A stretch of 64,000 bases of DNA from a bacterium (GTDB lineage Bacteria; Zhuqueibacterota; Zhuqueibacteria; Residuimicrobiales; Krinioviventaceae), in the NCBI GenBank assembly GCA_963674595.2, contig CAXXFV010000027.1, forward strand, positions 128,001-192,000, given 5' to 3'. The translations under genes and the position numbers were made by a program. Positions 17,352-59,799 of this stretch are shown in pieces (position 1 is the first letter of the stretch; every line of letters begins with the position of its first letter). The notes under the pieces were generated by a model. That model did not search any database and had not been told where the DNA came from. It was given only the letters and a program-made list of their open reading frames with translations.

Positions 17352-19677
17352 TTACTGTAAATGAAAAGATAAGACTGTTTTTATGTTCCGACCCATGGCC
17401 TGGATGTATGAGCCATAGGGTTGATATTCCAGATTAAACATATTACAAATTACCAATTGTAGTTTTGGTGAACCCGGTAATGAGTTGGCCTTGATGCCAC
17501 AGGCAAGATGCCACACCACATGTGAGTCGGAAGGTATGTATCCCCAAGGTCCGCCTTCACTTCCCTCTGGAACTTCGGAAACTCTATCCTGAGAAGCCGC
17601 ATATTCACATTGTATTTTCATGGAATAACCCGTGATATAATAGCGGTTGAAAAGGCCGTGATATTTTAGTTCACCGGTTAATTTAAACGGCGGCACACCA
17701 AAAAGAGGCACATTATCCCCATCCTTTGACAGATCTACGCCATAGACATGGGAGCTGCCCAAACCGACATACAAGGTATTAGCCGGATGAAGTATATTAT
17801 CAAACCGGTATGAGGCGGACAATTCTCCGCCTCTAATGACCGCATCGGTATTGGTATAGGTAAAATCCACGGATTCATGTTCAGTATCAGCCGTTTCATT
17901 GATATAATCTTGTAAACGGTTATAAAACAAGGCCAGATCATAAATAAATCGATCTTTATTCGTATGGCCCCGTAACCCAATATCTATATTAAAACTGTAT
18001 TCGGGCTGCAAATCGGGATTTCCGGCTTTGGTGCCCTTGCAACTGATCACCTCGGTAAACAACTCTTCGGCGGTAGGCATACGAAACGCCCTCCCCAAAT
18101 TTAAAGAAAACCTGTGATTGCTCTTCCAGGCATAAACCAGTCCCATATTGCCGCTTAACGCATCTCTGTCTTCATGTCGTTCCACCAGATTTTTGCCGGT
18201 TCCTTCGTCCCACAGTTGCCACATCATAACGCAGCCCCGCAATAACGCGCAGCCGGTTTGTGATGTCCAATGCGTCGTTGAAAAAACACACCCCGGTTTT
18301 TTTGTCCCGCGTTCTCATAACCTGCCACAGTTCCTTGTGTAGCATAATAATAATCGATTACGTCCGAAGGATTATCCAGCATAAAGAAATAACCATCCAA
18401 TCCTATGGTCATTGTGTTGCTTGGTCCAAATTTAAAATTAGCATAAAGTCGTGCGCCACCGTATTGATCCTTATAATGCACCAAATCAAGGGAAGTAGCT
18501 ATGCCGGAAACCGTACTGTATTTTGTTTTATAATAATCCCGTGTACCCGAATCATAATAAGCATTAAACTGAACTACAATCCACCCATGAACCGGGTGAA
18601 TAAGTATAGGAAAAATCGGAATGATTACGTTCCTCTTTATTTCGTATTTCGGTAAAAGCTTTGGTCGGGCCGTTAAAACCTCTTGGTTTTCCCCAATCTC
18701 CTTCATGATAGTCTGCATGAACCATGATTTTGTGACGGGAATTTATCTTAATACCTGTCGTAATGTCCAGATCGCGGTCCTCCACATCACTGTTTTCAGC
18801 AGAATGTCCCGTCACCATATTTAAAAGAATCGGTCTTTCGCCACTTTCCATGAATCATTATGCCATATTTTTCTTTTTGATAGCACGCGTTGGCGGTTTC
18901 GAGAAATTCATTATTATTACTTCCAAATCGGAAACCACACTCAAACGCGATCCCGGACGCCCCCAGGGTTCCTGACTGATTAAATTAATGATCCCTGATA
19001 TAGCACCGCTTCCGTATATGACAGATCCCCGGACCTTTTATAATCTCAACCTTTTGCGCACCGTAAATGTTCATATCCTGGCCAAAGTAACCGCCCGGAA
19101 AGGTCCCGATGCGCCTGTTTCCGTTTTTCATTACCAAAAGCCGTTTGGAGTTCATGCCCCGCAATAACAGAGGCGAATGGTATTCCCAAACCTGTGTAAA
19201 TCCAGGTTTAGTTGCCAGCATATCTGTCATATTGGATTGCATGTGCTCCACCAGTTGCCGGCGTTCAATAATCATCGCAGATTTGGCCAGGGTCTGAACA
19301 GGCTGTTCATAAAGTGACGCAGAAATAATTACATTTGGGAATTCCAAAACTTTGGGTTTTAAATCTACCCTCAACTTTTCTTCATTAAAAGGTTTAGTAA
19401 ATATTTTGGTCTTTTTTTGATAACCTACATGAGAAAATATCAAGTTTATTGTCCGATCATCCTGTATTTTAATCCTGAATATACCGCTTGAATCTGTTAC
19501 AGTTCCGCTGGACAAGTTTCTAACGCTTACATTGACATAGGGAATGGCATACCCGGTTTCAGAATCGCTAACACGACCGGTCACTTCAATGGCTGCTTCA
19601 GCATGATGAGGGATTAAAAGATTTATTAATCCAATCATACTGATAAGAAATATCATATATCTATCGTAAAAGTTCAT
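17352..19677 (-). pseudogene. TonB-dependent receptor (probably heme/iron), split by multiple frameshifts (true pseudogene or assembly indels)
   Basis: Fragments: signal peptide plus carboxypeptidase-like domain, plug (LRGM..KVEIIKGPG then SVIYGSGAISGIINLI in a shifted frame), barrel (GRAFRMPTAEELF, GNPDLQPE, NMFN..Y..MGRN); at least four frame changes. Confidence 0.85.
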
Positions 19678-24017: not shown

Positions 24018-24091
24018 GCCCCTGTAGCTCAGTAGGATAGAGCAACGGTTTCCTAAACCGTGGGCCGTGCGTTCGAATCGCGCCAGGGGCA
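24018..24091 (+). tRNA. tRNA-Arg (anticodon CCT)
   Basis: Full cloverleaf: acceptor GCCCCTG/CAGGGGC, D stem GCTC/GAGC, anticodon arm ACGGT-ttCCTaa-ACCGT, T arm GTGCG-TTCGAAT-CGCGC; CCA not encoded. Confidence 0.97.
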
Positions 24092-24257: not shown

Positions 24258-24811
24258 ATGAAAAAACAAATGATATTTCTTTGTCTGTTATCTGTTGTTT
24301 TAATTCAAACTGTAAAGGCCCAGGAAAATGAAATTAGTAACAAAATGAGCCTGGGATTTCAATTAAACCAATATCAACGCGATTTTGGATTGGGAATACA
24401 GGCAACCACCCCCTATTTTGCTCAGGGCAATATGGCTGTTCGTTTTAGAGCAAACTATATGTATTTAGAACATTTGGATACCGAAAATCTGTTAGACCTT
24501 GAAATGACCTGGACTCCCTATTTCAATATATGCATCGGGCTGGTAGGTGTTTCCGGAAAATCGGCGATTTTATGCGGCTATACGGTGAAGGCGGCTCGAT
24601 CATAATACTGCCTTCAAAAGATTTTTCATCAGAAGATATGGTTTTTGGCGGTTATGGTTGTTTCGGTTTTGAATTTTATATGTATAGCAAAGCAAATTAT
24701 TTTATCGAACTCGGTGGTATTGGGACCGCAGCAACAGCCGATAAATTATCCACTAAACCAATTTATTCAAACGGTTTTCTTATCAGCACAGGATTTCGAA
24801 AACATTTTTAA
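24258..24811 (+). pseudogene. Hypothetical outer-membrane beta-barrel protein with one frameshift near 24556
   Basis: Signal peptide VKA-Q; frame changes at GGAAAATC (one A short for GKIGDFMRLYGEGG); ends GFRKHF. Confidence 0.6.
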
Positions 24812-25230: not shown

Positions 25231-25279
25231 GAAAAGTCCCTCCTGTCGTTTGCTTAAACGGAAGAGGGACTTTCTTTTT
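25231..25279 (+). terminator. Rho-independent terminator after rhaM
   Basis: AAAGTCCCTC/GAGGGACTTT stem followed by CTTTTT. Confidence 0.75.
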
Positions 25280-25337
25280 AGAGAGAATGCTCATACTTGA
25301 ACTATCATCTGTGTATTATAATATTTTCAAAAAACTC

Positions 25338-25518
25338 TTGCACTGTTTTAAATAATATGTATAATTGTTTTATCAGTAATTAAGGTTTATTTTTGCAGAA
25401 AAATGGGTAAACTCGGGAATTTTTGAAAATCTTTTACTGATTAACCAAATATGAATATGGGAACCAAAAGCGCCAACCAGGAACATATTGTGTCGGAATT
25501 TAAATTATATTCCTGTTG
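25338..25518 (+). promoter_or_regulatory. Promoter plus conserved structured leader, copy 1 of 3 (candidate cis-regulatory RNA)
   Basis: TTGCAC-16-TATAAT, then ATCAGTAA/TTACTGAT stem; aligns with 43886-44064 and 51803-51984. Confidence 0.6.
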
Positions 25519-25765
25519 TCACGCCGATAATATTATTAGATTGGGCAGAGAATACCCAATTGATAGAAAAATACATGACCATCAATATTTTTCGGAAAAA
25601 CCATAGTTAGTACAACCAACTATGTTATTAACTGTTAAACATGATATAAACTAATAATAGGACACAGACCCCATTTACTAACATTCAACTTTAATATCAA
25701 TGTATTGTAATGGTTGTCTTTTAAAAGACAACTCAAATAATAACATTAATTTATTGGAGGTTGAA

Positions 25766-26173
25766 ATGCCAAGTATTAAAATTAAAAAATTTTCTATTTC
25801 TGTCCCCACGAATAGTAAAATTAACGTTAATGTCGAGTTTGATATTACACAAACAGACACTGAAAAGCGTTTAGAGATTCCAGGCAAAGTATTCTTTCAT
25901 TTAATGGAATGGGATGGTTCTTATAAAGATACCATGAATTTAACAGCAGATGGAAGTTATCTGCGAACAGGTGAACAAGATGATGATATAGCCGCCTTTT
26001 ACAAATACGCAGGTATGTTTACATCAGGAACATATAAATTTACTTTTAGTGTAGATAAAAGTCATTTACCAGGAGAATGGGGGAATGAAGAATGGTACGT
26101 TATCGGAGAATGTACAGCCGATGTAATAGATTCTCTCACGTATTCAAAGCATCTAAGTCTCAATCTCGCTTAA
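25766..26173 (+). CDS. Hypothetical protein (135 aa)
   Basis: GGAGG RBS before ATG 25766; followed by hairpin AGCGGGAG/CTCCCGCT; no family recognised. Confidence 0.7.
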   Translation: MPSIKIKKFSISVPTNSKINVNVEFDITQTDTEKRLEIPGKVFFHLMEWDGSYKDTMNLTADGSYLRTGEQDDDIAAFYKYAGMFTSGTYKFTFSVDKSHLPGEWGNEEWYVIGECTADVIDSLTYSKHLSLNLA

Positions 26174-26322: not shown

Positions 26323-28287
26323 ATGAAAAAAAATGAATATCTAATTTTTGTAATGTTAATTTGTTTGATTCTGCTCCCTGTTTACAGCCAATCAACCGAT
26401 TTACTCAAGCAATCAAATTATTCTCCTTATTTGAGAGGTCAAAGTATTAAATCAATCCCATCCGATTTTCAGGCAACAAGCTGGTTTGAAAAACAATTGG
26501 ATTGGGTTGACGGACGGTTTTCACAGGGTTTGGCTTATGACGGCGCCTATTGGTATTTTTCAGAAAAAGATGGCCTTTATAAAACAGATGAAAATTATAA
26601 TATGCTTTTGGAGGTTACCGGTAACCAAAATCCAATTCCGGACTCTCTCAGGGCCGAGGGTTTTCATCACATCGGGGATATAGCCTGTTTTCAGGGAAAT
26701 ATTTATGCTCCGATTGAAGAACCTACCTATACAAAACCGGTGATTATTACTTTTGATGCAGACAGCCTAAAATACACGGGTTTTTGTGTGCAAGTCCCGC
26801 AAGCTCATTTCCCCTGGATTGCCGCTGATCCGAATACTGGTCTTTTTTATTCATCTGAATTTAGTAACGCAGACCGCATATTTGTCTATGATTCAAACCA
26901 AAATTTCGCCCTTGTTGATCAGATAATGTTGAGCTCCCCGGTGGACCGCGTTCAGGGCGGCGCTGTTTTGGACAGCCTTTTGTATCTTTCCTGTGATAAT
27001 GGTGATTATGTGTATAGTATGGATATAGCGACCGGTACGGTGAATTCTTTGTTCAGTGTACTGTATTTACCGGAAATGGAAGGAATTGAGGCCTGTAAAC
27101 TTCCGTCCGGATTATTGCATTTTATTGCTGAAACCGGTCTGTCGCAAAATCTATTTTATCATTACGATCAACCTTTACCGGATGATATAAAATTAAGTGC
27201 CGTTTTGCTGCCGGAACCTGAAATGCCGATTTTTAGAAAATTTAATCCGCAAATAGTTTTGCAAAACGTTGGTATGAATGTCGGGCAAAATATCAATGTA
27301 ACTTGTATAATAGATAATAATAGTGTTGAAATTTACAGGGACACTCAAATTGTATCCGATGTGGAAAGCTTTGCAGAAATAGCAGTTGTGTTCAAAGACT
27401 GGTCACCAACAGAAATCGCCACATATAATTTTACTTTTATCAGCCAAATGGCAAACGATATGAATGCACTCAATGATACGTTACGCGTTACAATGGATGC
27501 GGGAAATATCGTTGAAAATTTCAATGCCGGTACAACAAATTGGGTCCTGGAGGGAAATTGGGTCCGATTGTTGGGAAAAGATTATACCTGGGGTATTGCA
27601 ACAATGCCCCGACCCTATCAAAACAATATGAACGCAATTCTATCTTACCTCCCCTCCTTTGATTTTTCGACCATTACTTTTCCGGATTCGATTGGGCTGA
27701 GTTTCTGGATGCGATATTGGCTTGAAAGCGGCAAAGATTTCTGTTATCTAGAAGTTAGTTCAGACAGCGTTTCATGGCAGACCGTGGCCGATTTTACAGG
27801 CATTACAAGTTCCTGGGAACAAAAATTTGTGTCTTTAAATGATTTTACAGGTCCCGGATATAATAACGTGCAAATCAGGTTTCGATTCGTGTCTGATTCG
27901 CTGGGTACGGACGAAGGCATTAACTTGGATGATATACAAATTTATATAGCACAACGTTCTGCAGCCGTTGAGAAACGGCCGGATAAAAATGTTATACCTG
28001 ATGGTATAGCACTCTATCAAAATTATCCGAATCCGTTTAATCCAAGTACGGTTATTGAATACGAACTGCACTCGGGTTCAGGTCCATGTGATATAACGTT
28101 GGAGATTTTTAATATTTTAGGCGAACGGATAAAAACGTTTCGATCTGTACAGAATCCCGGTAAATACAGCTTCACCTGGGACGGTGTGGACAATTATGGC
28201 AACAGCGTTCCGAGCGGTGTTTATTATTATCGCATAAGAACGGATTTTGAATATACTTCGTTGCAAAAAATGTTATTGATGAAATGA
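26323..28287 (+). CDS. Secreted protein: beta-propeller-like N-terminus, Ig/CARDB-like and jelly-roll domains, C-terminal FlgD-Ig/T9SS-type domain
   Basis: Signal peptide; LESGKDFCYLEVS..QIRFRFVSD..GINLDDI; LYQNYPNPFNPST..WDGVDNYGNSVPSGVYYY. Confidence 0.78.
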   Translation: MKKNEYLIFVMLICLILLPVYSQSTDLLKQSNYSPYLRGQSIKSIPSDFQATSWFEKQLDWVDGRFSQGLAYDGAYWYFSEKDGLYKTDENYNMLLEVTGNQNPIPDSLRAEGFHHIGDIACFQGNIYAPIEEPTYTKPVIITFDADSLKYTGFCVQVPQAHFPWIAADPNTGLFYSSEFSNADRIFVYDSNQNFALVDQIMLSSPVDRVQGGAVLDSLLYLSCDNGDYVYSMDIATGTVNSLFSVLYLPEMEGIEACKLPSGLLHFIAETGLSQNLFYHYDQPLPDDIKLSAVLLPEPEMPIFRKFNPQIVLQNVGMNVGQNINVTCIIDNNSVEIYRDTQIVSDVESFAEIAVVFKDWSPTEIATYNFTFISQMANDMNALNDTLRVTMDAGNIVENFNAGTTNWVLEGNWVRLLGKDYTWGIATMPRPYQNNMNAILSYLPSFDFSTITFPDSIGLSFWMRYWLESGKDFCYLEVSSDSVSWQTVADFTGITSSWEQKFVSLNDFTGPGYNNVQIRFRFVSDSLGTDEGINLDDIQIYIAQRSAAVEKRPDKNVIPDGIALYQNYPNPFNPSTVIEYELHSGSGPCDITLEIFNILGERIKTFRSVQNPGKYSFTWDGVDNYGNSVPSGVYYYRIRTDFEYTSLQKMLLMK

Positions 28288-28314
28288 TTTATCCTTGGCA
28301 ATAACAGGGAATGG

Positions 28315-28815
28315 CACATACCATTTCCATTACCGTAGGGACAGCCCCCTGTGTCTGTCCTGGTATCGGGCAATTTATTGGGCAATCACAGGGGATTGCC
28401 CCTACAATATAGGGCAATTTATCGGGCAATCACAGGGGATTGCCCCTACAAAATCGGGTAATCACGGATAATCACACATACCATTTCCATTACCGTAGGG
28501 ACAGACCCCTGTGTCTGTCCTGGTATCGGGCAATTTATCGGGCAATCATAGGGGATTGCCCCTACAAAATCGGGTAATCAAAGATAATCACACATACCAT
28601 TTCCATTACCGTAGGGACAGACCCCCGTGTCTGTCCTGGTATCGGGCAATTTATCGGGCAATCATAGGGGATTGCCCCTACAAAATCGGGTAATCAAAGA
28701 TAATCACACATGCCATTTCCATTACCGTAGGGACAGACCCCCTGTGTCTGTCCTGGAATCGGGCAATTTGTCGGGCAATCACAGGGGATTGCCCCTACAA
28801 TATCGGGTAATCACA
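28315..28815. repeat. BIME-like array of GTAG-type REP palindromes (116-bp period)
   Basis: GTAGGGACAG..CTGTCC at 28335, 28495, 28611, 28727 paired with five inverted GGGCAATC..GATTGCCCCTAC copies; linkers nearly identical. Confidence 0.85.
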
Positions 28816-42628: not shown

Positions 42629-43807
42629 ATGAAAACAATATCCCGTTTATTTATCCTCCTTTTACTCACCTGTTCTGTCTATGGACAATCAATTGATGAT
42701 TTGGGAACCGTGCTTGCCCACTCCAAAGCCGGCACAAAAATATACCTTGGTTGTCCATCAATCGTCACCTTACCGGACGGCACATTAATAGCAAGTCATA
42801 GTTTATTTGGGCCGGAATCTTCCAATGACATTGCAGATAATGTTAAAGTTTTTGTTTTTCAATCCAAAGATAGAGGAGAATCCTGGGAAAGAATTTCAGG
42901 CTTGAAAAACATTTACTGGGCCAACCTGTTTTACCATAACGACCATCTTTATATTATGGGAGCCTCCAAAGCCTACGGGGCCCTGGTCATTAAAAAAAGC
43001 AGTGACGGCGGTAAAACATGGACAGAACCGGTTGATAAAAAGCACGGACTGCTTCGCAATGATTTTGAGTACCATACCGCACCGGTCCCAGTTATAGAAA
43101 AAAACGGTCGTCTTTACCGGGCCGTTGAAGTGAGGAGTCCGGCTTATGGTTGGGGCATCAACTTTGAAACCTTGATTGTTTCCACACCTGCCGACGCAGA
43201 CCTGCTGGATGCCGATAACTGGAAAACATCGAACCGGCTGCATTTTAATCAGGAATGGACGGGCAGCGCCTGGCTGGAAGGAAACGTGGTAATCACCCCG
43301 GAAAATGAAATCGTTAATATGTTAAGAGTACATTATCTGCCTCATGGCGGACTGGCAGCCATGGTTAAATATGATGAAAAAGCAAATCGAATTTCCTTTG
43401 ATCCGGAAAAGGATTTTATCTATTTCCCCGGAGGAAGTAAAAAATTTACCATCCGTTATGATGAAAAAAGCAAACGTTACTGGACCTTGTCCAATTTTAT
43501 CAGGGATTTTGGTCACAACCCGGAGCGTACCCGAAATTGCCTCGCTCTTAGTTCGTCTCCTGACCTGTTAAACTGGACGGTTCACAAAGAAGTACTTTAT
43601 CACCCTGATGTTGAAAAACATGGATTCCAGTATGCTGATTGGCAGTTTGACGGAAACGATCTTATTACTTTGGTACGCGTTGCCTATGATGACGAATTCG
43701 GCGGCGCCGATAATCAGCATAATGCCAATTATATATTGTTTAAACGTGTTCCTGATTATAGAAATGTCGTTAAAGATACGATCGCCACTTTTTCGAATGA
43801 AAAATAA
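42629..43807 (+). CDS. BNR/Asp-box exo-sialidase-like beta-propeller protein
   Basis: Signal peptide; Asp-boxes SKDRGESW and SSDGGKTW; WLEGNVV; GFQYADW. Confidence 0.8.
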   Translation: MKTISRLFILLLLTCSVYGQSIDDLGTVLAHSKAGTKIYLGCPSIVTLPDGTLIASHSLFGPESSNDIADNVKVFVFQSKDRGESWERISGLKNIYWANLFYHNDHLYIMGASKAYGALVIKKSSDGGKTWTEPVDKKHGLLRNDFEYHTAPVPVIEKNGRLYRAVEVRSPAYGWGINFETLIVSTPADADLLDADNWKTSNRLHFNQEWTGSAWLEGNVVITPENEIVNMLRVHYLPHGGLAAMVKYDEKANRISFDPEKDFIYFPGGSKKFTIRYDEKSKRYWTLSNFIRDFGHNPERTRNCLALSSSPDLLNWTVHKEVLYHPDVEKHGFQYADWQFDGNDLITLVRVAYDDEFGGADNQHNANYILFKRVPDYRNVVKDTIATFSNEK

Positions 43808-43885
43808 TCTATTTCATTCACTACTCTATTTTATTTAATCTTTAACCTGGGGCAGCCAAAAATTTAATATTTTTTAAAATTCATC

Positions 43886-44064
43886 TTGCGTAGATTTTAT
43901 TTAATTCGTAATATTCTATTGTCAGGCGTAACAGGTTGTTTTCAGAATGGTTGGGAAATTGTGGGATATTTCGAAAAAAACCTGACTGACTTTCCATTTT
44001 TTAAATACGGGATTGACGGTATAAACGAAGAGATTGCATTGGATTCATTGCCATATTGCTGTTG
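43886..44064 (+). promoter_or_regulatory. Promoter plus conserved structured leader, copy 2 of 3
   Basis: TTGCGT-17-TAATAT, then GTCAG/CTGAC and CAGGTT/AACCTG stems; aligns with the other two copies. Confidence 0.6.
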
Positions 44065-44208
44065 GTTTACACGTCTGATTATATAATTTATAAACATTCT
44101 TTTAATAAATTTGGGTTTTTGTATTTATAGCGGTTGCTGATTTTTGTCAAATTGTATTAGAGGACATTGTTGTAAAATCTAAAAATTTTGAGCGATAAAG
44201 GAAATACT

Positions 44209-46230
44209 ATGAAAACAAAAATATTTATTCTTTCCATCTTTTTCTCAATAATATTGGGAAATAGTGTTGTTTATTGTTTTAGAAATCCGATTCAAATTGC
44301 AACCTCAAATTTAAAGGGCGCTACATATTATACAAATAACCGATTCATTGCACGAACATCGGATGATCGTTTGGTTGTTATTTATACCGACAAATTTGAC
44401 TCACAATATCAAATTTACTGGACATATAGCGATCATGGCTTTTCCTGGGCACCTCCTCAACTGCTTGCTGATGGAGATAATTGTGGTTTAACAATAGACG
44501 AAAATGATAATATATACCTCATTTACACCAATGATGAAAATGTGATATTCTTTTCAGTCCTTGAAAATGGAAAAAACATGTGGAATGAACCCATTAATGC
44601 AAAAACGATAGACGGCGATATAATCAAAGGTGAAGTGTCTGCCATCGAAGTAAGCGATTCTAATCTTATTCTTCTATATCTAAATAATGGATTATATTAT
44701 CATTCTTTTGCCCTGCCCTCATTATGTCCCACAAGTAATGCTGAACTAATAACTACTAAACCGACTGGTAAATTTTCAATTGCCGCTGATATCAGATTTA
44801 AAAAAGGCCCAATACATATCATGTGGGCTTCTGGTGATCTCTATTATTGTAACATAAACAATAACTCCGGCTCTAACTGGAATCTGTCATTTGATCCTGT
44901 CAGCATTAATGGATTTACTATAAGGTATTGGTCGCATGATTTTTATGAATTTATTAGTCCAAAAAGACCTTCAATGTCTGTTGATAATGATAACCATAAT
45001 GGCAATGAATATTATATTTCTTATGCCTTTGGTGACGAGAATAGGCTTGTAACCGGATTTATTTCAGCAAACAATAATAATGCTTCATTTCGTTATTTTG
45101 ATTTCTACGAAACTGAAAATGAACAGATCTTTCCATGCGTGGATGATGTGGTAAATATAGATCAATCTTGCGCTTTGGTTTGGAATGGTGATGTTGATAA
45201 AAATATTTATTATGCACAAATGGAAGCAGCATATTTAGGGACACTCCCTCCAATTCCGGTTTCAGATGATAATGACAGCTATAAATCTCATCCCAATGTT
45301 TGTTATCGCACATTTCGGGCTGATTATTTTGATGTTATTTGGACGGAAGGAAATGCTCCGCCATACAAAGTTATGTTTAGACGAATGGGCAAGAGATCTA
45401 ATCGACTACCACAGAACCTTACCATAGAAAAAAAAAGCTTTTACTATATTCCTTACCAAAAGTACTGGAATGTTTCATCGATTGCAGCGGGAGGCAAACA
45501 TCCATACAATTGGGAGGTCCTTTCAGGTTTTTTACCACCCGGTTTAACAATTGAAGAGGAGGATTGTATTAAAGGGACACCTACAAAATCAGGAAACTAT
45601 AACTGTCTTGTTAAAGTAACAGATTCAACAATTCCGGCCGATTCAGATTCGAAAAACTTTTATTTTAATATAATCAATCATGCGCCAGAGATTACCTCGC
45701 CTGATACAGTATATGTTAAAATTGACAGCCTTTTGCAATATCAACCCACAGCAGATGATATGGAGGAAAATTCCATACAATGGCATTTTAGTGAATATCC
45801 AGTCTGGATGACGGCTGATTCATCCCGGATACAGGGCATTGTCCCCTCTGACTTTGAGGATGCGTCCTTTATTATTACAGCGTCTGACGGTGAGCTGGCA
45901 GATACCCTGCGTGTTTACGTCAAGTTATTTAACAGCACCTCTGTGGATGGAAACAGTGGCATCCCCTTAAAATTCACTCTTTACCAGAACTATCCAAATC
46001 CTTTTAATCCGGCGACAATAATAAAATACAGGTTGGCTAAAGCAAATAAAGTAACATTAAAAATATTTAATCTTTGTGGTCAGGAAGAAGAAACACTGGT
46101 AGATGATTTTCAATCAGCAGGTGAGCATACCTTATATTGGCAGCCAAAAAATTTAACCAGCGGCTTGTATTTTTACAGATTATATGCTGGCGAATTTTCA
46201 GCAACAAAGAAATTAATTTTACTAAAATAA
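44209..46230 (+). CDS. Secreted protein with BNR-like N-terminus, putative Ig repeats and C-terminal T9SS-type sorting-like domain
   Basis: Signal peptide; YSDHGFSW; GGKHPYNWEVLSGFLPPGL..GTPT; LYQNYPNPFNPAT..SGLYFYRL. Confidence 0.78.
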   Translation: MKTKIFILSIFFSIILGNSVVYCFRNPIQIATSNLKGATYYTNNRFIARTSDDRLVVIYTDKFDSQYQIYWTYSDHGFSWAPPQLLADGDNCGLTIDENDNIYLIYTNDENVIFFSVLENGKNMWNEPINAKTIDGDIIKGEVSAIEVSDSNLILLYLNNGLYYHSFALPSLCPTSNAELITTKPTGKFSIAADIRFKKGPIHIMWASGDLYYCNINNNSGSNWNLSFDPVSINGFTIRYWSHDFYEFISPKRPSMSVDNDNHNGNEYYISYAFGDENRLVTGFISANNNNASFRYFDFYETENEQIFPCVDDVVNIDQSCALVWNGDVDKNIYYAQMEAAYLGTLPPIPVSDDNDSYKSHPNVCYRTFRADYFDVIWTEGNAPPYKVMFRRMGKRSNRLPQNLTIEKKSFYYIPYQKYWNVSSIAAGGKHPYNWEVLSGFLPPGLTIEEEDCIKGTPTKSGNYNCLVKVTDSTIPADSDSKNFYFNIINHAPEITSPDTVYVKIDSLLQYQPTADDMEENSIQWHFSEYPVWMTADSSRIQGIVPSDFEDASFIITASDGELADTLRVYVKLFNSTSVDGNSGIPLKFTLYQNYPNPFNPATIIKYRLAKANKVTLKIFNLCGQEEETLVDDFQSAGEHTLYWQPKNLTSGLYFYRLYAGEFSATKKLILLK

Positions 46231-51717: not shown

Positions 51718-51802
51718 ATAATTTATTAAAAGCAATAGTTGCTTCCCTCCTGCTGTTCCAGTTTGCCTGCTGAAATATATCACAATTTATTTTAAAAAAA
51801 CC

Positions 51803-51984
51803 TTGCACTGATTTTATTTAATTTGTAATATTAAAATGTCAGTGCTAACGAATTGTTTTCAGAACGGTTGGGAGTATGCGGGCGATTCTGAAATCTGTTT
51901 TTGCTGATTTTCCATCTTAAAAATATGGGCACCAAACAAACACGAGGAAGAGATTGAACCGGGACGTAAATCACATTCCTGTTG
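51803..51984 (+). promoter_or_regulatory. Promoter plus conserved structured leader, copy 3 of 3
   Basis: TTGCAC-17-TAATAT, then GTCAGTG/TGCTGAT and TTTCAGAA/TTCTGAAA stems; aligns with the other two copies. Confidence 0.6.
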
Positions 51985-52083: not shown

Positions 52084-52335
52084 ATGGAAAGCAAAAAGAC
52101 AACAAACCTGTTACTTTTAATCATTACTGTTTGTTTAATCCTCATCACAGGTAAGTTATATAATGTCCCTTTAACATCAGATGCCAATGCACAAAACAGT
52201 ACGATGAATGTAAAAGTTGAAAACTTTGAAGAGTTAGAGTGGAAAATAAGATACCAATTAATGGCGATATTTAATTTAAGTCTAACTAAAAAATCATTAG
52301 ATGTAAACGTGCTTAATATAGATGATTTAAAATAA
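52084..52335 (+). CDS. Small hypothetical exported/membrane-anchored protein (83 aa)
   Basis: GGAG RBS before MESKKTTNLLLLIITVCLIL..ANAQ. Confidence 0.6.
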   Translation: MESKKTTNLLLLIITVCLILITGKLYNVPLTSDANAQNSTMNVKVENFEELEWKIRYQLMAIFNLSLTKKSLDVNVLNIDDLK

Positions 52336-52398
52336 AAGAATAAAGTTTCTAAAAACTTTCAAACTATGTTACCATCCTGTTCATACTCAGAGGTGCCT

Positions 52399-54429
52399 AT
52401 GCTAAATCGACACGGAAACGCACTAAAGATATTATTTATCCTGATATTTTTGCACACAATACCACTCTTTTCACAAACACAGGGAAAACTTGCCATTGCT
52501 GTGGTGGACCTGGATGCTCCCGGTTTAAAAGCCGGAACACGGAAGGCCTTGTCCGACCGGTTAAGGAATGAACTTTTCTATACGGGCCGTTTTTCAGTTA
52601 TGGAACGCCATAAAATGGAAGATATTTTAAAAGAGCAGGGATTTCAACAGTCCGGTTGTACAAGCAAAGAATGTGTTGTTGAGGTTGGTCGTATATTAGG
52701 CGTAAAGCAGATGATCTCGGGCAGTGTCGGTAAAGTGGGCACGATTTATACCATTTCACTTCGTATGATTGATATTGAAACCGGACGAATTATGCTCACC
52801 AAAACAGAAGACTGTAACTGTCCCATTGAAATGGTGTTGACCACTGCGCTGCGTAATATTGCCATTAAAATGGCCGGCCTACCTCTGAACAATAAAACTC
52901 TCAGGGAAATACAAAAACGGTCAGCTATTGGGACCGGTGATTTTTATTTCAAATCAGAGCCGGTAGGCGCCACAGTATATATCGATGAAAAACCGCAAAC
53001 CGGGGTAACGCCTTTAACAATTGAGAATATTCCGACAGGGATACACCAAATAAGTATGAAAAAAGGCAATTACAGCGGCAGTCAAACAGTTTATCTCGAA
53101 CCCAACGAATTTAAAAGAGTGGAAATTAAACTGGTAAAAGCAAAAGGTTCATTAAAAATAATTTCCCAGCCTTTGGAAGCAGACATTTTTCTGGACAATA
53201 AATACAGTGGTAAAACACCTCAAACCCTGTCGAATCTGGATGCCGGAGAACATCGTCTTAAACTTTCCAAATCCGGCTATGAAGACTATGAACAAGTCTT
53301 ATCAATTAAAGGCAATAAACAGGAACGAATAACTGTGGATTTGCCCGAAATACTGCCGGCAACTTTAAAGATTATATCACAACCGGCAGATTGTGATGTT
53401 TACCTGAACAGGCAATTTAAAGGGAAAACACCTCTGGTTCTCCATAAAGTAACACCCGGTTTTACATCCATTCTTCTAACTCATCCGATGCACAAAGACT
53501 GGATGACCACAATTGTTTTAGAAAGCACAGAAGCCAAAGAACTGGAACCCGTTTTAAAGAAAAAAACAGGCAAAATTGTAATTAATTCAAAACCTGATGG
53601 AGCAGATATAAAAATTAATGGCGTTCCAACAGGAAAAACTCCTCTTGTGATCTCTGAGATTGAATATGGCAAATATACAATTAAAATATCCAAGCGGGAT
53701 TATGAAACAAAAACGGAATATATATCACTTTATTCAGAGAATACAAAGACAATTAACACCAGACTTTTGCCCGGGAAAGCAAAACTTACCATCAAAGGCA
53801 GCCCAGCCGGTGCAGATATTTTAATTAATAACGAATTAGCCGGGAATATGCCTTTGACAAAAAATGAAATGGACGCCGGTGAATATTCCATACGAATCAC
53901 GGCCTCAGGTTACGAAAATCAAAAGGCAAAAATTAAACTATTACCCAATAAAACCAGTGACATTAAAATTGATTTAACACGAAAATCGAATAAAAGGGCT
54001 TTTTATCGTTCTTTGTGTCTTCCCGGGTTGGGACAGCACTATTTGGGGAAAAATCAAAAAACCGTCATCTTTCCAATTCTTGAAATAGGGGCGATAACAG
54101 GGATTCTTTTATGCGAAAAAAATTTCTCCAAAGCCAACTCAGACTATAACACTGCACGTACAAATTATTCTCAAACAGCGGAACAATATCTCCTTGACCG
54201 ATATTACGCACAAATGAAAAATTATTATAATGAAATAAAATCCGCAGAAAAAAAGCGTAATTTTTTTATTGGAGCTGCGGTTGGAATATGGATTTGGAAC
54301 GCTGTTGATGCCCTGCTATTTTCTTCTAATTCAGATACAATGACCAGAATGAATGAAAATAGCGACGTCAAACTTTCCTCATCTAATTTTGATGGGAAAC
54401 AACTGATCGGATTGAATATTAATTTTTAG
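52399..54429 (+). CDS. PEGA-repeat protein with N-terminal CsgG/FlgO-like domain and C-terminal membrane region
   Basis: IAVVDLD..LSDRLR..MEDILKEQGFQQSGC..VEVGRILGV; five S.P.GA.V.I.G..GKTP PEGA repeats; SLCLPGLGQHY. Confidence 0.82.
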   Translation: MLNRHGNALKILFILIFLHTIPLFSQTQGKLAIAVVDLDAPGLKAGTRKALSDRLRNELFYTGRFSVMERHKMEDILKEQGFQQSGCTSKECVVEVGRILGVKQMISGSVGKVGTIYTISLRMIDIETGRIMLTKTEDCNCPIEMVLTTALRNIAIKMAGLPLNNKTLREIQKRSAIGTGDFYFKSEPVGATVYIDEKPQTGVTPLTIENIPTGIHQISMKKGNYSGSQTVYLEPNEFKRVEIKLVKAKGSLKIISQPLEADIFLDNKYSGKTPQTLSNLDAGEHRLKLSKSGYEDYEQVLSIKGNKQERITVDLPEILPATLKIISQPADCDVYLNRQFKGKTPLVLHKVTPGFTSILLTHPMHKDWMTTIVLESTEAKELEPVLKKKTGKIVINSKPDGADIKINGVPTGKTPLVISEIEYGKYTIKISKRDYETKTEYISLYSENTKTINTRLLPGKAKLTIKGSPAGADILINNELAGNMPLTKNEMDAGEYSIRITASGYENQKAKIKLLPNKTSDIKIDLTRKSNKRAFYRSLCLPGLGQHYLGKNQKTVIFPILEIGAITGILLCEKNFSKANSDYNTARTNYSQTAEQYLLDRYYAQMKNYYNEIKSAEKKRNFFIGAAVGIWIWNAVDALLFSSNSDTMTRMNENSDVKLSSSNFDGKQLIGLNINF

Positions 54430-54445
54430 TCAATGGGGATGCCAT

Positions 54446-56770
54446 ATGAAACGTTTACTAGTATATTCTTACCTTTTGATCATTTTTGCGTTTATTGCTA
54501 TAATACATTGTGAAAAAAAGCCAACTGAACCGGAACGGGACAATCCGTTAGATGTAAAAAATGTTACAACAGTCGGAGATCCTTTTAACCTGACCTGTGC
54601 TTTTGCCAATGGCGGGGTGAAGCTAACCTGGACCAAAGTCGGTTTGTCATCAATTAAAGGATATAATATTTATCGCAGTGAATCACAAGAAACAGGATAT
54701 ACCCAAATACATCAGGCATTGAATACCTACACATTCACAGATAAAGCCGTGAAAAACGGTCATGTTTATTATTATAAAATCACAGCGTTTTTAACAAATG
54801 GCCAGGAAAATAACCAAAGCAACATTGAAGCGGTTCGTATTCACACGGACCCTTTGATTGTAATAAACAGCGATGAACAATATTCGGCCATTCGTAATGT
54901 TGAACTGACAATCATCGCATCCGATGCCAAGGAAATGTGGCTGTGTAATAATGATCAATTCACCGAAGGCAACTGGGAAAGTTATAATTCATTAAAGGAC
55001 TGGACATTATCCACAGGAGAAGGCACAAAGAATGTCTACCTGAAAATAAAATATGAAAATGATGAGGTTTCCAATATATCTTCAGACAATATTCTGCCCC
55101 TGCCCATGCAGCCGTCGGTTAAAATTGCCAATGACAGTGTGTATACATCCAGACGGGATGTTTCAGTGTTATTTTCAGCAACCGGTGAAAATTTATATAT
55201 GAAAGTCAGTCAGGATTCAGGTTTTACAAATATTGGCTGGGAAGAATACACAACCTCTAAAAATATGACACTACCTGCCGGTGACGGCACTAAAACAGTA
55301 TATGCTAAGTTTAAAAATGATTTTGAAATCGAATCAGCTACCATTTCAGATGATATTCTACCGCAGCCGATGAAACCTGAAATTATTATTTCTGATGGTA
55401 GTACTTATACTTCAACCCGTGAGACAGTATTAAATTTAAAGGCAACCGGTGAAAATTTATATATGAAAGTTAGCCAGGATTCCGGTTTTACAAATGTTTC
55501 CTGGGAAGAGTATACAACCTCTAAAAATATGACATTACCTGATGGTGATGGAGCCAAAACAGTATATGCTAAATTTAAAAATGATTTTGAAATCGAATCA
55601 AACATAATTTCTAATTCAATCATATTAGATATGACAGGTCCTATAGCAGATTTTTCTGTTACACCAACCATTGGAGTTGCTAATGTAACATTTTTTGAAT
55701 TTGATGCAACCAACAGCTATGATAATTTCTCACTCATGCTGCGCTGGGATTGGGATAATGATGGTAACTATGATACGGACTGGTGGACAATCAAAACAGC
55801 AACCCAACTTTTTCAAACTGGCGGTGGTGACAGAACTGTTGGATTACAAGTAAAGGATGGTGCTGGACATACCGCTCATATAAGTAAATCTGTTTATGTT
55901 AATACATATCCTGTTGCATCTTTTACAGTATCCTGGGATGAAAATACTTATCTACTTTATCACGTTGACGCTTCTTTTTCATCAGATTATGAGGATGGCA
56001 AAAATCTGGAGTATCGCTGGGACTGGAACAATGACGGTATATGGGACACCCATTTTAGTTCTAATAAGATTATAGCTCATCAATATAGTAGTGAAGGTAA
56101 TAAGATAGTAAAACTTGAGGTTAGGGATACAAAAGGGCTAACACATTCAACAGTAAAGCAACTGTCTGAGCCATTTACAGTAACCGATATTGACGGAAAT
56201 ACATATAAAGTAGTAAAAATTGGTAATCAATGGTGGATGGCCGAAAACTTAAAAGTTACACATTACGGAAATGGTGACGCCATACCCAAGGTAATTGAAG
56301 AGGGCTCTTGGTATTTTACTAATTCCGGTGCTTATTGTATATATGACAATAACGACGAAAATGCATCTACTTATGGTTGTTTATATAACTGGTATGCTGT
56401 TTATGATACCCGTAAAGTAGCCCCTGATGGTTGGCATGTTCCAAATGATGAAGAATGGAATACATTAATTGATTATCTAGGTGGAAGTGAAATTGCAGGC
56501 GGTAAAATGAAAGAGGCTGGTACTGTTCACTGGCAAAGCCCAAATACCGGAGCGACGAATGAAAGTGGATTTTCAGCAGTACCTAGCGGTTACAGGACAT
56601 TAAGTGGGAGTGAATTTTTATTTTCAGGTCAGAGGTCCTATTATTGGTCTGCTACAAATGCCGCAATTATAGATGCAAGAAATTTTAGTCTCAATTATCG
56701 AAGTGCCGAAATTTATAATGTAGGAAGTAACAAAAAGTGGGGCTTTTCTGTTCGCTGCATACGAGACTAA
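54446..56770 (+). CDS. Lipoprotein with FN3, internal repeats, PKD domains and C-terminal FISUMP (Fibrobacter succinogenes major paralogous) domain
   Basis: Lipobox IIHC, ERDNPLD; RWDWDNDG PKD motifs; TDIDGNTYKVVKIGNQWWMAENLK..LYNWYAV..GFSVRCIRD. Confidence 0.87.
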   Translation: MKRLLVYSYLLIIFAFIAIIHCEKKPTEPERDNPLDVKNVTTVGDPFNLTCAFANGGVKLTWTKVGLSSIKGYNIYRSESQETGYTQIHQALNTYTFTDKAVKNGHVYYYKITAFLTNGQENNQSNIEAVRIHTDPLIVINSDEQYSAIRNVELTIIASDAKEMWLCNNDQFTEGNWESYNSLKDWTLSTGEGTKNVYLKIKYENDEVSNISSDNILPLPMQPSVKIANDSVYTSRRDVSVLFSATGENLYMKVSQDSGFTNIGWEEYTTSKNMTLPAGDGTKTVYAKFKNDFEIESATISDDILPQPMKPEIIISDGSTYTSTRETVLNLKATGENLYMKVSQDSGFTNVSWEEYTTSKNMTLPDGDGAKTVYAKFKNDFEIESNIISNSIILDMTGPIADFSVTPTIGVANVTFFEFDATNSYDNFSLMLRWDWDNDGNYDTDWWTIKTATQLFQTGGGDRTVGLQVKDGAGHTAHISKSVYVNTYPVASFTVSWDENTYLLYHVDASFSSDYEDGKNLEYRWDWNNDGIWDTHFSSNKIIAHQYSSEGNKIVKLEVRDTKGLTHSTVKQLSEPFTVTDIDGNTYKVVKIGNQWWMAENLKVTHYGNGDAIPKVIEEGSWYFTNSGAYCIYDNNDENASTYGCLYNWYAVYDTRKVAPDGWHVPNDEEWNTLIDYLGGSEIAGGKMKEAGTVHWQSPNTGATNESGFSAVPSGYRTLSGSEFLFSGQRSYYWSATNAAIIDARNFSLNYRSAEIYNVGSNKKWGFSVRCIRD
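55178..55600 (+). repeat. Intragenic tandem duplication, 264-bp (88-aa) period
   Basis: GCAACCGGTGAAAATTTATATATGAAAGT..GATTTTGAAATCGAATCA at 55178 and 55442, nearly identical. Confidence 0.85.
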
Positions 56771-56908
56771 GATATTTCCAGCATAAACAGTTTCAAGAGC
56801 AATATTATGCGAACTTTGCAGAGTATGATTATTTATAAGGTCAATTGAAATTAACTGCCGGTATATAGAAGGAAGAATAAATTAGGGGTCAAATCACATA
56901 CGGGAATG

Positions 56909-56939
56909 AATGGTGGAATCCGTATTGAACTCCACCATT
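56909..56939. terminator. Hairpin between convergent genes
   Basis: AATGGTGGA/TCCACCATT stem just past the stop of the small minus-strand gene. Confidence 0.55.
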
Positions 56940-56945
56940 TAAGAG

Positions 56946-57116
56946 TTAAAAACCTTTTAATACGGTTCCGAGGAAAAGAAGAATATAACCGATTACGACC
57001 AACCAGAAGGCATATACACTGAGGAATGGTACCGTAACAACAGCGCCGATAACACCAAGTATTGCCAAAATTAGTGAAACTAACCAAACATTCTTTTTAG
57101 GTGCTGAAAGTTTCAT
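56946..57116 (-). CDS. Small two-helix membrane protein (56 aa); not in the ORF track
   Basis: GGAGG RBS; MKLSAPKKNVWLVSLILAILGVIGAVVTVPFLSVYAFWLVVIGYILLFLGTVLKGF*. Confidence 0.8.
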   Translation of the reverse strand: MKLSAPKKNVWLVSLILAILGVIGAVVTVPFLSVYAFWLVVIGYILLFLGTVLKGF

Positions 57117-57366
57117 AGTTCCTCCACTTTTTGTTAAAATGTATTGTTAACACACGGCACAATAGCCGCTTAATTTTCACAAAACTGGTATTGTCTTTAA
57201 CTCTTAAAACAGTCCGTAATTATACTAAAAAGCTGTACAAACATATTCTTAAAAAAATTATATCAAATAATCATATAAATAGCAAGAATAAATTCAAAAT
57301 ATTTCCCTTGATTTATTTGCTAAAATATTTTAGTATAACAATCAAATTTTTGCTATCAGACTCTTA

Positions 57367-59799
57367 ATGATGGGAGACATCATGGATGATTATGAAAAGT
57401 TAGGTGCATTTTATTTGGGGCGGACACATGATCTCGATAAAAATATTACGCGCAACGAGCTGCTTCTTTATGATTCAAAAGATTTGACCACGCACGCCGT
57501 TTGTATTGGTATGACAGGAAGCGGCAAGACCGGTTTATGCATAGATCTGCTGGAAGAAGCCGCCATTGATGGCATACCCGCACTTGTTATTGATCCCAAA
57601 GGTGACATGACAAATCTGCTTCTAAATTTTCCTAATCTTTCCGCTGAGGAATTTAAACCCTGGATTAATGAGAACGATGCCAGGAAAAATGAAATATCTC
57701 CTGAAGAATATGCAGAAAAACAGGCTGTTTTTTGGAAAACGGGATTAAACAAGTGGGACCAGGGTAGTGAAAGAATTCATCGCCTTAGAAATGCTGCAGA
57801 GTTTGATATTTTTACACCGGGCAGTTCTGCCGGTTTACCTGTTTCCATATTAAAATCATTTTCAGTTCCTCCACAGGAAGTGCTGGATGATACCGATACA
57901 TTAAATGAACGAATCTCCATGACAACAACCAGTTTATTGAGTTTGATGGGGATTGATGCTGACCCGATTAAGAGTCGCGAACATATTCTAATGTCAACTA
58001 TTATCAATTATTATTGGACGAATGGTCAGGATTTGGATTTGGCCTCCTTAATCCAGGCGATTCAATCTCCCCCTGTTTCCCGGATAGGTGTATTTGATTG
58101 TGATGTATTTTACCCTGCAAAAGAACGATTTGAATTAGCCATGATCCTGAATAACCTGCTTGCAGCGCCAAGTTTCCAAACATGGCTTGAAGGTGAAAGT
58201 CTGGACATTAATTCGTTGCTTTACACACAAACCGGCAAACCAAGAATATCTATTTTTTCTATCGCGCATTTATCGGATAATGAACGAATGTTTTTTGTGT
58301 CACTTTTACTTAACCAAATTCTGGGTTGGATAAGGACACAATCCGGAACATCGAGTTTGAAAGCAATTTTATATTTTGATGAAATATTCGGTTATCTACC
58401 GCCAACAGCTAATCCTCCCTCGAAAAAAGCACTATTGACATTATTAAAACAGGCAAGAGCATTTGGGTTAGGTATTGTGCTTTCCACACAAAATCCTGTT
58501 GATTTGGATTATAAAGGCTTGTCAAATACGGGCACATGGTTTATCGGGCGTTTACAAACAGAGCGTGACAGAGACAGAGTTTTAGACGGGCTTTTGGGTT
58601 CTTCGAGTCAGGGTTTTGATCGCAATACTTTAGAACAAATGATATCTCAACTTGGGAAAAGAATATTTTTACTGCACAATGTTCATGAACAAAAGCCTGA
58701 GCTCTTTGAAACCCGATGGGCAATGTCCTATCTAACGGGTCCGCTTACAAGACCTCAAATCAAAAAACTGATGGATGTTAAAAAGAACAAAATTAAAGCA
58801 GGTATTGAATCACCTGTTGAAGAAGGCCCAAAAGTTACAGAAACAAGCAGCCGCCCTAATCTTGCACCGGAAATAAATCAATTTTTTATAAATGTCAAAA
58901 GATCAATTCCTGAACAGCAACCAATCGTATATCGGCCTTTTATATGGGGCAGTGCAATAGTACAATTCAGGGACAAGCCGCGAAACATTGATATGCAGGA
59001 GACATTTAAAATCATCACACCAATAAATAATGAAATTATTGCTGTTGACTGGAACAATTCAGAGGCCATTGACCTGGAAATTTCAGAACTTTCAAAAGAA
59101 AGTGAAAAATATGCAAAGTATGAAAATTTGCCGATAGCCGCAAACCAACTAAAAAGTTACAAGGCGTGGCAAAAGGATTTTATTGGATATATTCATCAAA
59201 ACAAAAAATTAACATTACTCAAAAGTGTTAATTACAAGATCACCTCAGAGCCAAATGAAACAGAGAGAGATTTTCGAATCCGTTTATCACAAATAGCAAG
59301 AGAACAAAGAGACGAATGGACCGGTAAGCTACGCGAAAAATATGCAAAAAAATTATCTTCCCTGGAAGCTAAAATTAGAACGGCAGAAGATCGTGTGGAG
59401 CGGGAGATGGCACAGGCAAAACAACAAAAAATGCAAACGGCAATATCAATTGGAACGACCATTCTGGGCGCATTTTTGGGACGAAAAGCTCTTAACCGAA
59501 CAGCTATCAACAAAGCTGGGACGGCAATACGAAGCGCCGGCCGCAGCAGAAAAGAAGCCGGAGACGTGGCAAGGGCCCAGGAAAATTTAAAAGTATTGCA
59601 GGAACAACTGGACGAAATTAATGAAAAATTCCAGACTGAGCTTGAGGACTATTCTTTAAAAAATGATGTTAACCAGGAAGAGTTTGAAACAATTTTTATC
59701 CGACCTTTAAAAACCAACATTTCAGTACAGTTGTTAAGTTTGGTTTGGGTTCCATTCCAGGAGTTAGAAGACGGAATTATTGTTCAGGCATATAGCTAA
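57367..59799 (+). CDS. DUF87/HerA-FtsK-like P-loop ATPase with C-terminal coiled coil
   Basis: THAVCIGMTGSGKTG, IDPKGD, YFDEIFG, LLKQARAFG, TQNPVDLDYK. Confidence 0.85.
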   Translation: MMGDIMDDYEKLGAFYLGRTHDLDKNITRNELLLYDSKDLTTHAVCIGMTGSGKTGLCIDLLEEAAIDGIPALVIDPKGDMTNLLLNFPNLSAEEFKPWINENDARKNEISPEEYAEKQAVFWKTGLNKWDQGSERIHRLRNAAEFDIFTPGSSAGLPVSILKSFSVPPQEVLDDTDTLNERISMTTTSLLSLMGIDADPIKSREHILMSTIINYYWTNGQDLDLASLIQAIQSPPVSRIGVFDCDVFYPAKERFELAMILNNLLAAPSFQTWLEGESLDINSLLYTQTGKPRISIFSIAHLSDNERMFFVSLLLNQILGWIRTQSGTSSLKAILYFDEIFGYLPPTANPPSKKALLTLLKQARAFGLGIVLSTQNPVDLDYKGLSNTGTWFIGRLQTERDRDRVLDGLLGSSSQGFDRNTLEQMISQLGKRIFLLHNVHEQKPELFETRWAMSYLTGPLTRPQIKKLMDVKKNKIKAGIESPVEEGPKVTETSSRPNLAPEINQFFINVKRSIPEQQPIVYRPFIWGSAIVQFRDKPRNIDMQETFKIITPINNEIIAVDWNNSEAIDLEISELSKESEKYAKYENLPIAANQLKSYKAWQKDFIGYIHQNKKLTLLKSVNYKITSEPNETERDFRIRLSQIAREQRDEWTGKLREKYAKKLSSLEAKIRTAEDRVEREMAQAKQQKMQTAISIGTTILGAFLGRKALNRTAINKAGTAIRSAGRSRKEAGDVARAQENLKVLQEQLDEINEKFQTELEDYSLKNDVNQEEFETIFIRPLKTNISVQLLSLVWVPFQELEDGIIVQAYS

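Follow-up and report, generated by a model that had tools for sequence, protein, structure and literature searches.

A promoter-linked candidate leader RNA present in three copies upstream of surface-protein operons within one 64-kb bacterial window

A non-coding cassette of approximately 180 bases, consisting of a promoter-like region followed by a leader, was found at positions 43886–44064 (+ strand) of the window, i.e. the entire 64-kb stretch of DNA analyzed here. Two homologous copies occur on the same strand at 25338–25518 (copy 1) and 51803–51984 (copy 3), and the element at 43886–44064 is hereafter copy 2. Each copy lies upstream of, and is co-oriented with, a + strand operon, and according to Pfam the products of every one of these operons are envelope or secreted proteins. 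We give about even odds (a probability near 0.5) to the reading that the cassette joins a sigma-A-type promoter to a cis-acting 5' leader RNA that is common to a small surface-protein regulon. The family consists of three paralogues of one genome, all within this window, and as a candidate new cis-regulatory leader RNA, so far from one window, it is credible but thinly supported.

The preliminary description of this DNA had proposed a leader family with three members in the window, and blastn, nhmmer and covariance-model searches agree on exactly that. Comparison of the intergenic region with the window by blastn paired copy 2 with copy 3 (match at 51784–51873, E 6.8e-15), and an nhmmer profile built from these two copies recovered copy 1 (25324–25546) at an E-value of 4e-14, with the next match in the window at E 4.4. 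A covariance model of the three copies (R1), searched on both strands with filters off, scored them at 150–167 bits (150 for copy 1 and 167 for copy 3), while the next-best match in the window reached 15 bits at E 0.12 (41 rows at E ≤10).

All copies follow a common plan. The promoter part consists of CTTGC at the -35 position, a 16–17-nt spacer, TAnnAT at the -10 position and, 7 nt later, a purine that opens a hairpin. The loop of the hairpin has the invariant form UGGG-N7-GGG-N3-UU-N2-GAAA, and 3' of the hairpin come CUGA-N4-CCA, 8–9 variable positions, AAUAYGGG, a variable linker of 15–19 nt and a block with a fixed length of 38 nt. Copy 1 has its -35 (TTGCAC) at 25338–25343, its -10 (TATAAT) at 25360–25365, the hairpin at 25372–25441, CCA at 25445–25447, AATATGGG at 25454–25461 and the 3' block at 25481–25518; in copy 3 the corresponding features are TTGCAC at 51803–51808, TAATAT at 51826–51831, the hairpin at 51838–51908, CCA at 51912–51914, AATATGGG at 51922–51929 and the 3' block at 51947–51984. 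Pairwise identity between copies is 66–86% in the promoter, 52–64% in the hairpin, 64–80% in the block from CCA to AAUAYGGG, 16–58% in the linker and 63–74% in the 3' block, and past CUGUUG it falls to 31–43%. This block-wise pattern indicates that the conserved unit spans about -50 to +145 and ends well before the start codons. The 5' UTRs are approximately 245–395 nt long, and the last 100–250 nt before the Shine-Dalgarno (SD) site are not conserved; in copy 2 this non-conserved remainder covers 44065–44208 (+ strand), up to AAGGAAA, which resembles an SD site, and the start codon ATG at 44209.

The promoter-like region of copy 2 occupies 43886–43914 (+ strand), where 19 of 29 columns of the three-copy alignment are invariant. 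Its hexamers, TTGCGT at 43886–43891 and TAATAT at 43909–43914, are separated by the 17-nt spacer AGATTTTATTTAATTCG (43892–43908), precisely as the preliminary description had placed them, and all other motifs listed there were likewise located by direct reading of the sequence. The spacer was also said to be nearly identical to that of copy 3, and 15 of the 17 positions do match; a promoter pattern that includes the spacer picks out these two copies alone within the window, where 0.01 chance matches are expected. An A/T-rich stretch immediately 5' of the -35 (43860–43885, + strand) is partly conserved among the copies, with 7 of 16 alignment columns invariant, and may be UP-element-like. A generic scan for the sigma-70 consensus did not report the TTGCGT/TAATAT pair, which agrees with the consensus at 7 of 12 positions against a threshold of 9. 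The promoter call therefore rests on conservation among the three copies and on spacing, not on consensus strength. A TTGCAA hexamer about 30 nt upstream of a tRNA gene weakly suggests that -35 boxes of the TTGC type are normal in this host. For copy 2 the predicted transcription start site falls on the G at 43921, and in all three copies the first base of the outermost stem (P1) lies exactly 7 nt 3' of the -10, the start site itself being a prediction.

From this position copy 2 can form a 5'-terminal hairpin that extends to 43990 on the + strand. The nested arrangement reported earlier was found as described, with GTCAG (43921–43925) and CTGAC (43986–43990), i.e. P1, enclosing both CAGGTT (43932–43937)/AACCTG (43979–43984), i.e. 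P2, and TTTTC (43939–43943)/GAAAA (43973–43977). The last pair belongs to P3, in which 43939–43943 and 43945–43947 pair with 43970–43972 and 43973–43977 (UUUUC(A)GAA with UUCGAAAA). The apical loop comprises 22 nt (43948–43969) and contains GGTTGGGAAATTGTGGGA (in RNA form, UGGGAAAUUGUGGGA). The hairpin measures 70, 70 and 71 nt across the three copies.

Comparison of the three copies supports conservation of the 5' hairpin as an RNA structure, and on the + strand only. Folded alone, the 5' domain adopts a single long hairpin in each copy (z -1.78, -1.04 and -1.49 for copies 1, 2 and 3, respectively). The consensus fold of this domain on the + strand has a z-score of -3.9 and a structure conservation index (SCI) of 0.57, which none of 200 column shuffles reached, whereas the values for the reverse strand are -0.5 and 0.05. 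The asymmetry arises from G-U pairs and is expected of an RNA, not of a DNA palindrome. In the structure named above, 92.6% of 68 cells are paired, as compared to 33–55% when the partners are slid by 1–3 columns, and both-sided changes occur in 6 of 23 pairs as compared to 0–2 in the slid arrangements. These measures were attained by 11–28 of 500 shuffles, in controls that ignore the kinship of the three copies and for a structure derived from the same three sequences. The earlier proposal that the stems differ between copies while pairing is retained was borne out for P2 and outer P1; as evidence of covariation, however, it comes from three paralogues of one genome. Likewise, the description of the whole as a structured leader RNA applies to the 5' hairpin, which is strand-specific, but does not extend to the complete element, since single-sequence folds of its full length do not surpass shuffled sequences in stability (z +0.57, +0.62 and +0.61 for the three copies) and the 3' half has no conserved fold. 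In copy 1 only, complementarity of P1 reaches across the -10 (25355–25379/25434–25458; 25-nt arms, 80% complementary). The helix of copy 1 would be much longer if transcription began further upstream; copies 2 and 3 have no such extension.

Directly 3' of the hairpin, the conserved block CUUUCCA...AAAUACGGG of copy 2 (43991–44011, + strand) contains CCA at 43994–43996 and AAUAYGGG at 44004–44011, and 15 of 25 columns are invariant. The loop sequence, TTTCCA immediately after P1 and the end of the element were all present as first reported. This block could form a short hairpin, P4 (four pairs, three of them invariant), or alternatively a pseudoknot with the UGGG of the loop. A pairing of loop TGGGAA with TTTCCA had been suggested in the preliminary description, and every copy is able to form it: over the three copies, 17 of 18 cells of the UGGGAA/UUUCCA helix pair and one pair is changed on both sides. 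It does not rise above the control, however, as 178 of 500 shuffles equal it, and a pseudoknot between the loop and CCA is possible on these sequences. Written in RNA letters, the part of copy 2 that follows UUUCCA consists of AAAUACGGG, GAAGAGAUUG and AUAUUGCUGUUG, the last base being 44064.

The 3' block of copy 2, GAAnAnAUUGnnnnGG-N10-AnAUUnCUGUUG, occupies 44027–44064 (+ strand), with GAAGAGATTG at 44027–44036 and CATATTGCTGTTG ending at 44064. Its length of 38 nt does not vary among the copies, 20 of the 38 columns are invariant, and it can be written as the search pattern GAAnAnATTGnnnnGG-N10-AnATTnCTGTTG. No conserved fold was found across the three copies in this 3' half of the element (alifold z +0.14, SCI 0.07). 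A P5 helix given by alifold (GGAAU/AUUCC) and an alternative, AGGAA/UUCCU, were both considered within the block, and a conserved P5 was rejected because ACGAA and UUGCU in copy 2 create C-C and G-G oppositions without compensation, in keeping with the z-score of +0.14. Neither inspection by eye nor minimum free energy folds of the full leaders gave any pairing common to the three copies in which CCA or CUGUUG would engage the SD regions or the 5' strand of P2/P3. A sigma-54 (-24/-12) site in the 3' block was also dismissed by eye, the spacing from GG to GC being wrong.

Copy 2 is overlapped by a 66-codon ORF (43886–44086) whose TTG start is the -35 hexamer, and the element could in principle encode a small protein or leader peptide, either this ORF or a shorter one inside it. 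Besides the overlap itself, one frame has no stop codon within the fixed-length 3' block of any copy, although in copy 3 it has no ATG, GTG or TTG start there. The ORF as a whole is not conserved: the start codon and frame are not kept in copies 1 and 3, both of which have in-frame stop codons, and amino-acid substitutions between copies are not conservative. The same frame of copy 3 reads TTG CAC TGA, and its longest ORFs, of 23 and 32 aa, lie in other registers; the frame of copy 1 is stopped at UAA after CUGAU. No homologue sharing words with the 66-aa product was found among 5.8 billion protein clusters, in a search confined to proteins of 36–116 aa. A phmmer search against 1.84 billion representatives gave four matches (E 5.5e-6 to 8e-4), all of them tandem-repeat proteins of 272–472 aa that align in 3–5 short stretches each, and their scores are inflated because they are summed over repeats. 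These are repeat-protein artefacts. A coding role for copy 2 has a next to negligible probability. In two of these representatives, repeat units of about 61 aa match ORF residues 15–36 (P0001) and 15–57 (P0004) with the pattern GW.I.G..EK.L.D; this resemblance was judged to be chance amplified by repetition, and the two proteins could be translated non-coding repeat arrays.

The gene downstream of copy 2 (44209–46230, + strand) had been called a 673-aa secreted protein of the Ig/T9SS type, an assignment that Pfam corroborates (He_PIG 1.8e-9, Por_Secre_tail 1.7e-7). The Atlas clusters closest to it, which are most frequent in Ignavibacteriota/Bacteroidota, also contain He_PIG/Por_Secre_tail; their scores of at most 0.86 make them leads only. 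Taken with the T9SS tails, they hint at the FCB group, perhaps Ignavibacteriota, again merely as a lead. The operon of copy 1 (+ strand) comprises a 135-aa ORF with no Pfam family (25766–26173) and a 654-aa protein with a T9SS tail (26323–28287). In the operon of copy 3, also on the + strand, an 83-aa membrane-anchored ORF (52084–52335) is followed by a 687-aa PEGA/CsgG-like/LpoB-like protein (52366–54429) and a 774-aa PKD/Fib_succ_major protein (54446–56770). Among the proteins downstream of the three copies, only a T9SS tail is shared, between the 654-aa protein of copy 1 and the 673-aa protein of copy 2 (98 aa, E 3e-15), and all other matches have E 0.28 or above. The downstream genes are thus not paralogues, and the similarity of the leaders is not a by-product of gene duplication.

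SD-like sequences (GGAGG, AAGGAAA and GGGAGA) precede the start codons of the leader-borne genes. No terminator-like site was found on the + strand between element and gene in any of the three regions (43700–44300 for copy 2), while a canonical terminator, a GC-rich inverted repeat with a T-run, occurs elsewhere in the window at 25233–25273, after rhaM. With respect to an expression platform, there is no terminator in these regions and folds of the full leaders share no pairing of the SD region among the three copies. An RNA bound by CsrA/RsmA would be expected to present several GGA motifs in hairpin loops, one of them overlapping the SD site. Here, three to four GGA/GGG motifs stand at conserved positions of the alignment, two of which read GGGC in copy 3, at a distance of 150–300 nt from the SD site; no csrA was recognized among the genes of the window.

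If the cassette is a sigma-A-type promoter with a cis-acting leader, each copy would drive a different operon of cell-surface or secreted proteins. Transcription would begin at the purine that lies 7 nt downstream of the -10 (positions 43921, 25372 and 51838 for copies 2, 1 and 3, respectively), and the mRNA would open directly with the imperfect 70-nt hairpin, with its invariant apical UGGG-N7-GGG, followed by the single-stranded blocks CCA, AAUAYGGG and GAAnAnAUUG...CUGUUG and then by non-conserved UTR up to the SD site. Such a leader could place the three operons under one post-transcriptional control. The invariant loop and the single-stranded blocks argue for a common trans factor that would recognize them, presumably an RNA-binding protein or an RNA rather than a small molecule, and the base-paired 5' end may shield the message from 5'-end-dependent decay. 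As the leaders have no terminator, we infer that control would be exerted on mRNA stability or on translation and not through attenuation at an intrinsic terminator.

The ompA 5' UTR of E. coli and the aprE leader of B. subtilis carry 5'-terminal stem-loops, on genes for abundant envelope or secreted proteins, that act as stabilizers and need only a paired 5' end. The present element resembles them in its long 5' UTR, in envelope or secreted gene products and in having no terminator in the leader, and its hairpin would likewise begin at or within a few nt of +1 if transcription starts at the predicted position. Unlike in ompA and aprE, conservation here extends to the loop and to approximately 80 nt of single-stranded sequence further downstream, and the cassette is common to unrelated operons, both of which point to specific recognition.

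A more ambitious and clearly tentative proposal is that the element belongs to a class of regulatory leader RNAs not described before and acts as a riboswitch or as a riboregulator bound by a protein. Its 70-nt 5' hairpin, with the G-rich loop, would then respond to a single signal and co-ordinate a type IX-secreted/envelope regulon in an Ignavibacteriota-like lineage that is thinly represented among public reference genomes. As in orphan riboswitch candidates and pseudoknotted aptamers, the element lies in a 5' UTR and combines variable stems with an invariant loop or junction and a possible pseudoknot from the loop to the 3' side. Unlike in such candidates, it has neither an Rfam match nor an apparent expression platform, whether a terminator or an SD-sequestering helix, and the downstream genes encode structural surface proteins, not metabolic enzymes or transporters.

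Conservation of this kind could instead act at the level of DNA, as operator or activator sites or as a loading site for a NusG paralogue on the non-template strand, used by a transcription factor that governs the three operons, the hairpin being incidental. In favor of such a module, the promoter with its spacer is the most conserved part (66–86%) and several blocks are conserved as plain sequence without a fold. In other phyla, loading sites of this type occur in the leaders of operons for surface polysaccharides (ops/JUMPstart, used with RfaH, and the targets of UpxY in Bacteroides), and these, together with the EAR RNA of the Bacillus eps operon, share with the present element a conserved leader 3' of the promoter, several surface-component operons and no terminator of their own. 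They differ from it in that no ops-like sequence was recognized here, the operons contain only 1–3 genes and the Rfam scan reports no such family. Furthermore, complementarity that is specific to one strand (SCI 0.57 on the + strand, 0.05 on the - strand) and includes G-U pairs is not predicted for a DNA site, P2 and outer P1 vary in sequence while pairing is kept, and a conserved transcribed stretch of approximately 150 nt is long for operators. On balance we consider a DNA-level module doubtful. It is similarly unlikely that the copies are sibling sRNAs, each of about 150–200 nt and made from a co-regulated promoter or processed from the 5' UTR, with the C/U-rich AUUCCUGUUG of the 3' block serving as a seed against the purine-rich ribosome-binding sites of targets. 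Multi-copy sibling sRNAs such as Qrr, PrrF and RsmY/Z are paralogous, have a promoter conserved along with the RNA, as is typical under a single regulator, and contain an unstructured conserved stretch; the present copies match this picture in their conserved promoter and spacer and in a 3' block that is conserved in sequence yet unstructured, as expected of a possible seed, and their conservation ends sharply at CUGUUG, 100–250 nt short of the start codons. As an independent sRNA gene, however, every copy has a promoter-like site but no terminator of its own: no + strand intrinsic terminator follows any of the three, though the genome has canonical ones elsewhere. Unlike in those sRNA families, each copy also lies directly upstream of a co-oriented operon that has no other recognizable promoter, and the presumed seed reads UUGCUG in copy 2 versus UUCCUG in copies 1 and 3.

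A non-functional origin, as a repeat in decay or the remnant of a mobile element (for instance a MITE-like sequence or an invertible promoter), would account for a multi-copy non-coding sequence that occurs in one genome and was not recovered from the genome, plasmid and phage collections searched. Against this, an inverted-repeat scan of the three regions gave none that is common to the copies, terminal or flanking, and none that brackets the promoter; orientation and position relative to the genes are the same in all copies; divergence is block-wise instead of uniform; and no plasmid or phage sequence matched. This explanation appears very improbable. The promoter with a cis-acting leader RNA is the reading retained here.

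Searches beyond the window were used to assess the status of the family. The element matches no described RNA family: at gathering thresholds, the 4227 models of Rfam 15 detected nothing in the whole window except the tRNA at 24018–24091, and permissive Rfam scans of copies 2 and 3 gave at best 12–21 bits, compared to thresholds of 34–90, at E-values of at least 3.6. A total of 185,579 species genomes was scanned with a strict pattern of 20 bases common to the three copies, TGGG-N7-GGG-N3-TT-N2-GAAA-N{5,15}-CTGA-N4-CCA. This resulted in seven loci (L001–L007; GC 38–65%), approximately the number that we had estimated beforehand to arise by chance, and all were judged to be chance matches. At these loci nhmmer aligns nothing beyond the pattern itself (E at least 0.016) and the covariance model finds nothing at the pattern site. 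Since none of the seven is a homologous locus, the source species seems to be absent from the scanned genome collection. No match to the element was obtained in plasmid and phage collections (blastn, distant mode), and the search listings and opening parts of abstracts that were consulted mentioned no such leader and no such post-transcriptional regulon. If real, the element would be a new cis-regulatory RNA family linking T9SS cargo, a PEGA/CsgG-like lipoprotein and a Fib_succ_major protein, and an entry point to co-ordination of the surface proteome in a branch of the FCB group that has received little study. It would also offer a compact promoter-leader cassette for expression work.

The window has a GC content of 37.8% and, besides a large number of envelope proteins, encodes ordinary functions of metabolism and transport such as a TRAP transporter, a POR-like oxidoreductase and ABC exporters. 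Several further features were observed in it. A tandem array (28310–28813, + strand) lies directly downstream of the copy 1 operon and was resolved by TRF into 3.5 units of 116 nt with 95% identity (28408–28813) and a 44-nt sub-repeat (28364–28462). Two GC-rich palindromes, GGGACAGACCCCTGTGTCTGTCC and GGGCAATCACAGGGGATTGCCC, recur in each unit. As the array has no spacers it is not CRISPR-like, and no Rfam model matches it. A TonB-dependent receptor on the - strand (17352–19677) appears to be split over three consecutive ORFs, namely CarboxypepD_reg+Plug at 18985–19677, an ORF with no family at 18224–18718 and the beta-barrel at 17352–18242, and may be a pseudogene or frameshifted. The overlapping + strand ORFs at 24258–24605 and 24530–24811, which begin with a signal-peptide-like start, resemble one frameshifted small gene of the outer-membrane type; the first of them has no Pfam family. 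Lastly, a + strand gap of approximately 600 nt (56771–57366) precedes the gene for a HerA/FtsK-like ATPase (57367–59799) and seems to hold a short membrane-protein-like ORF on the - strand that ends near 57117.
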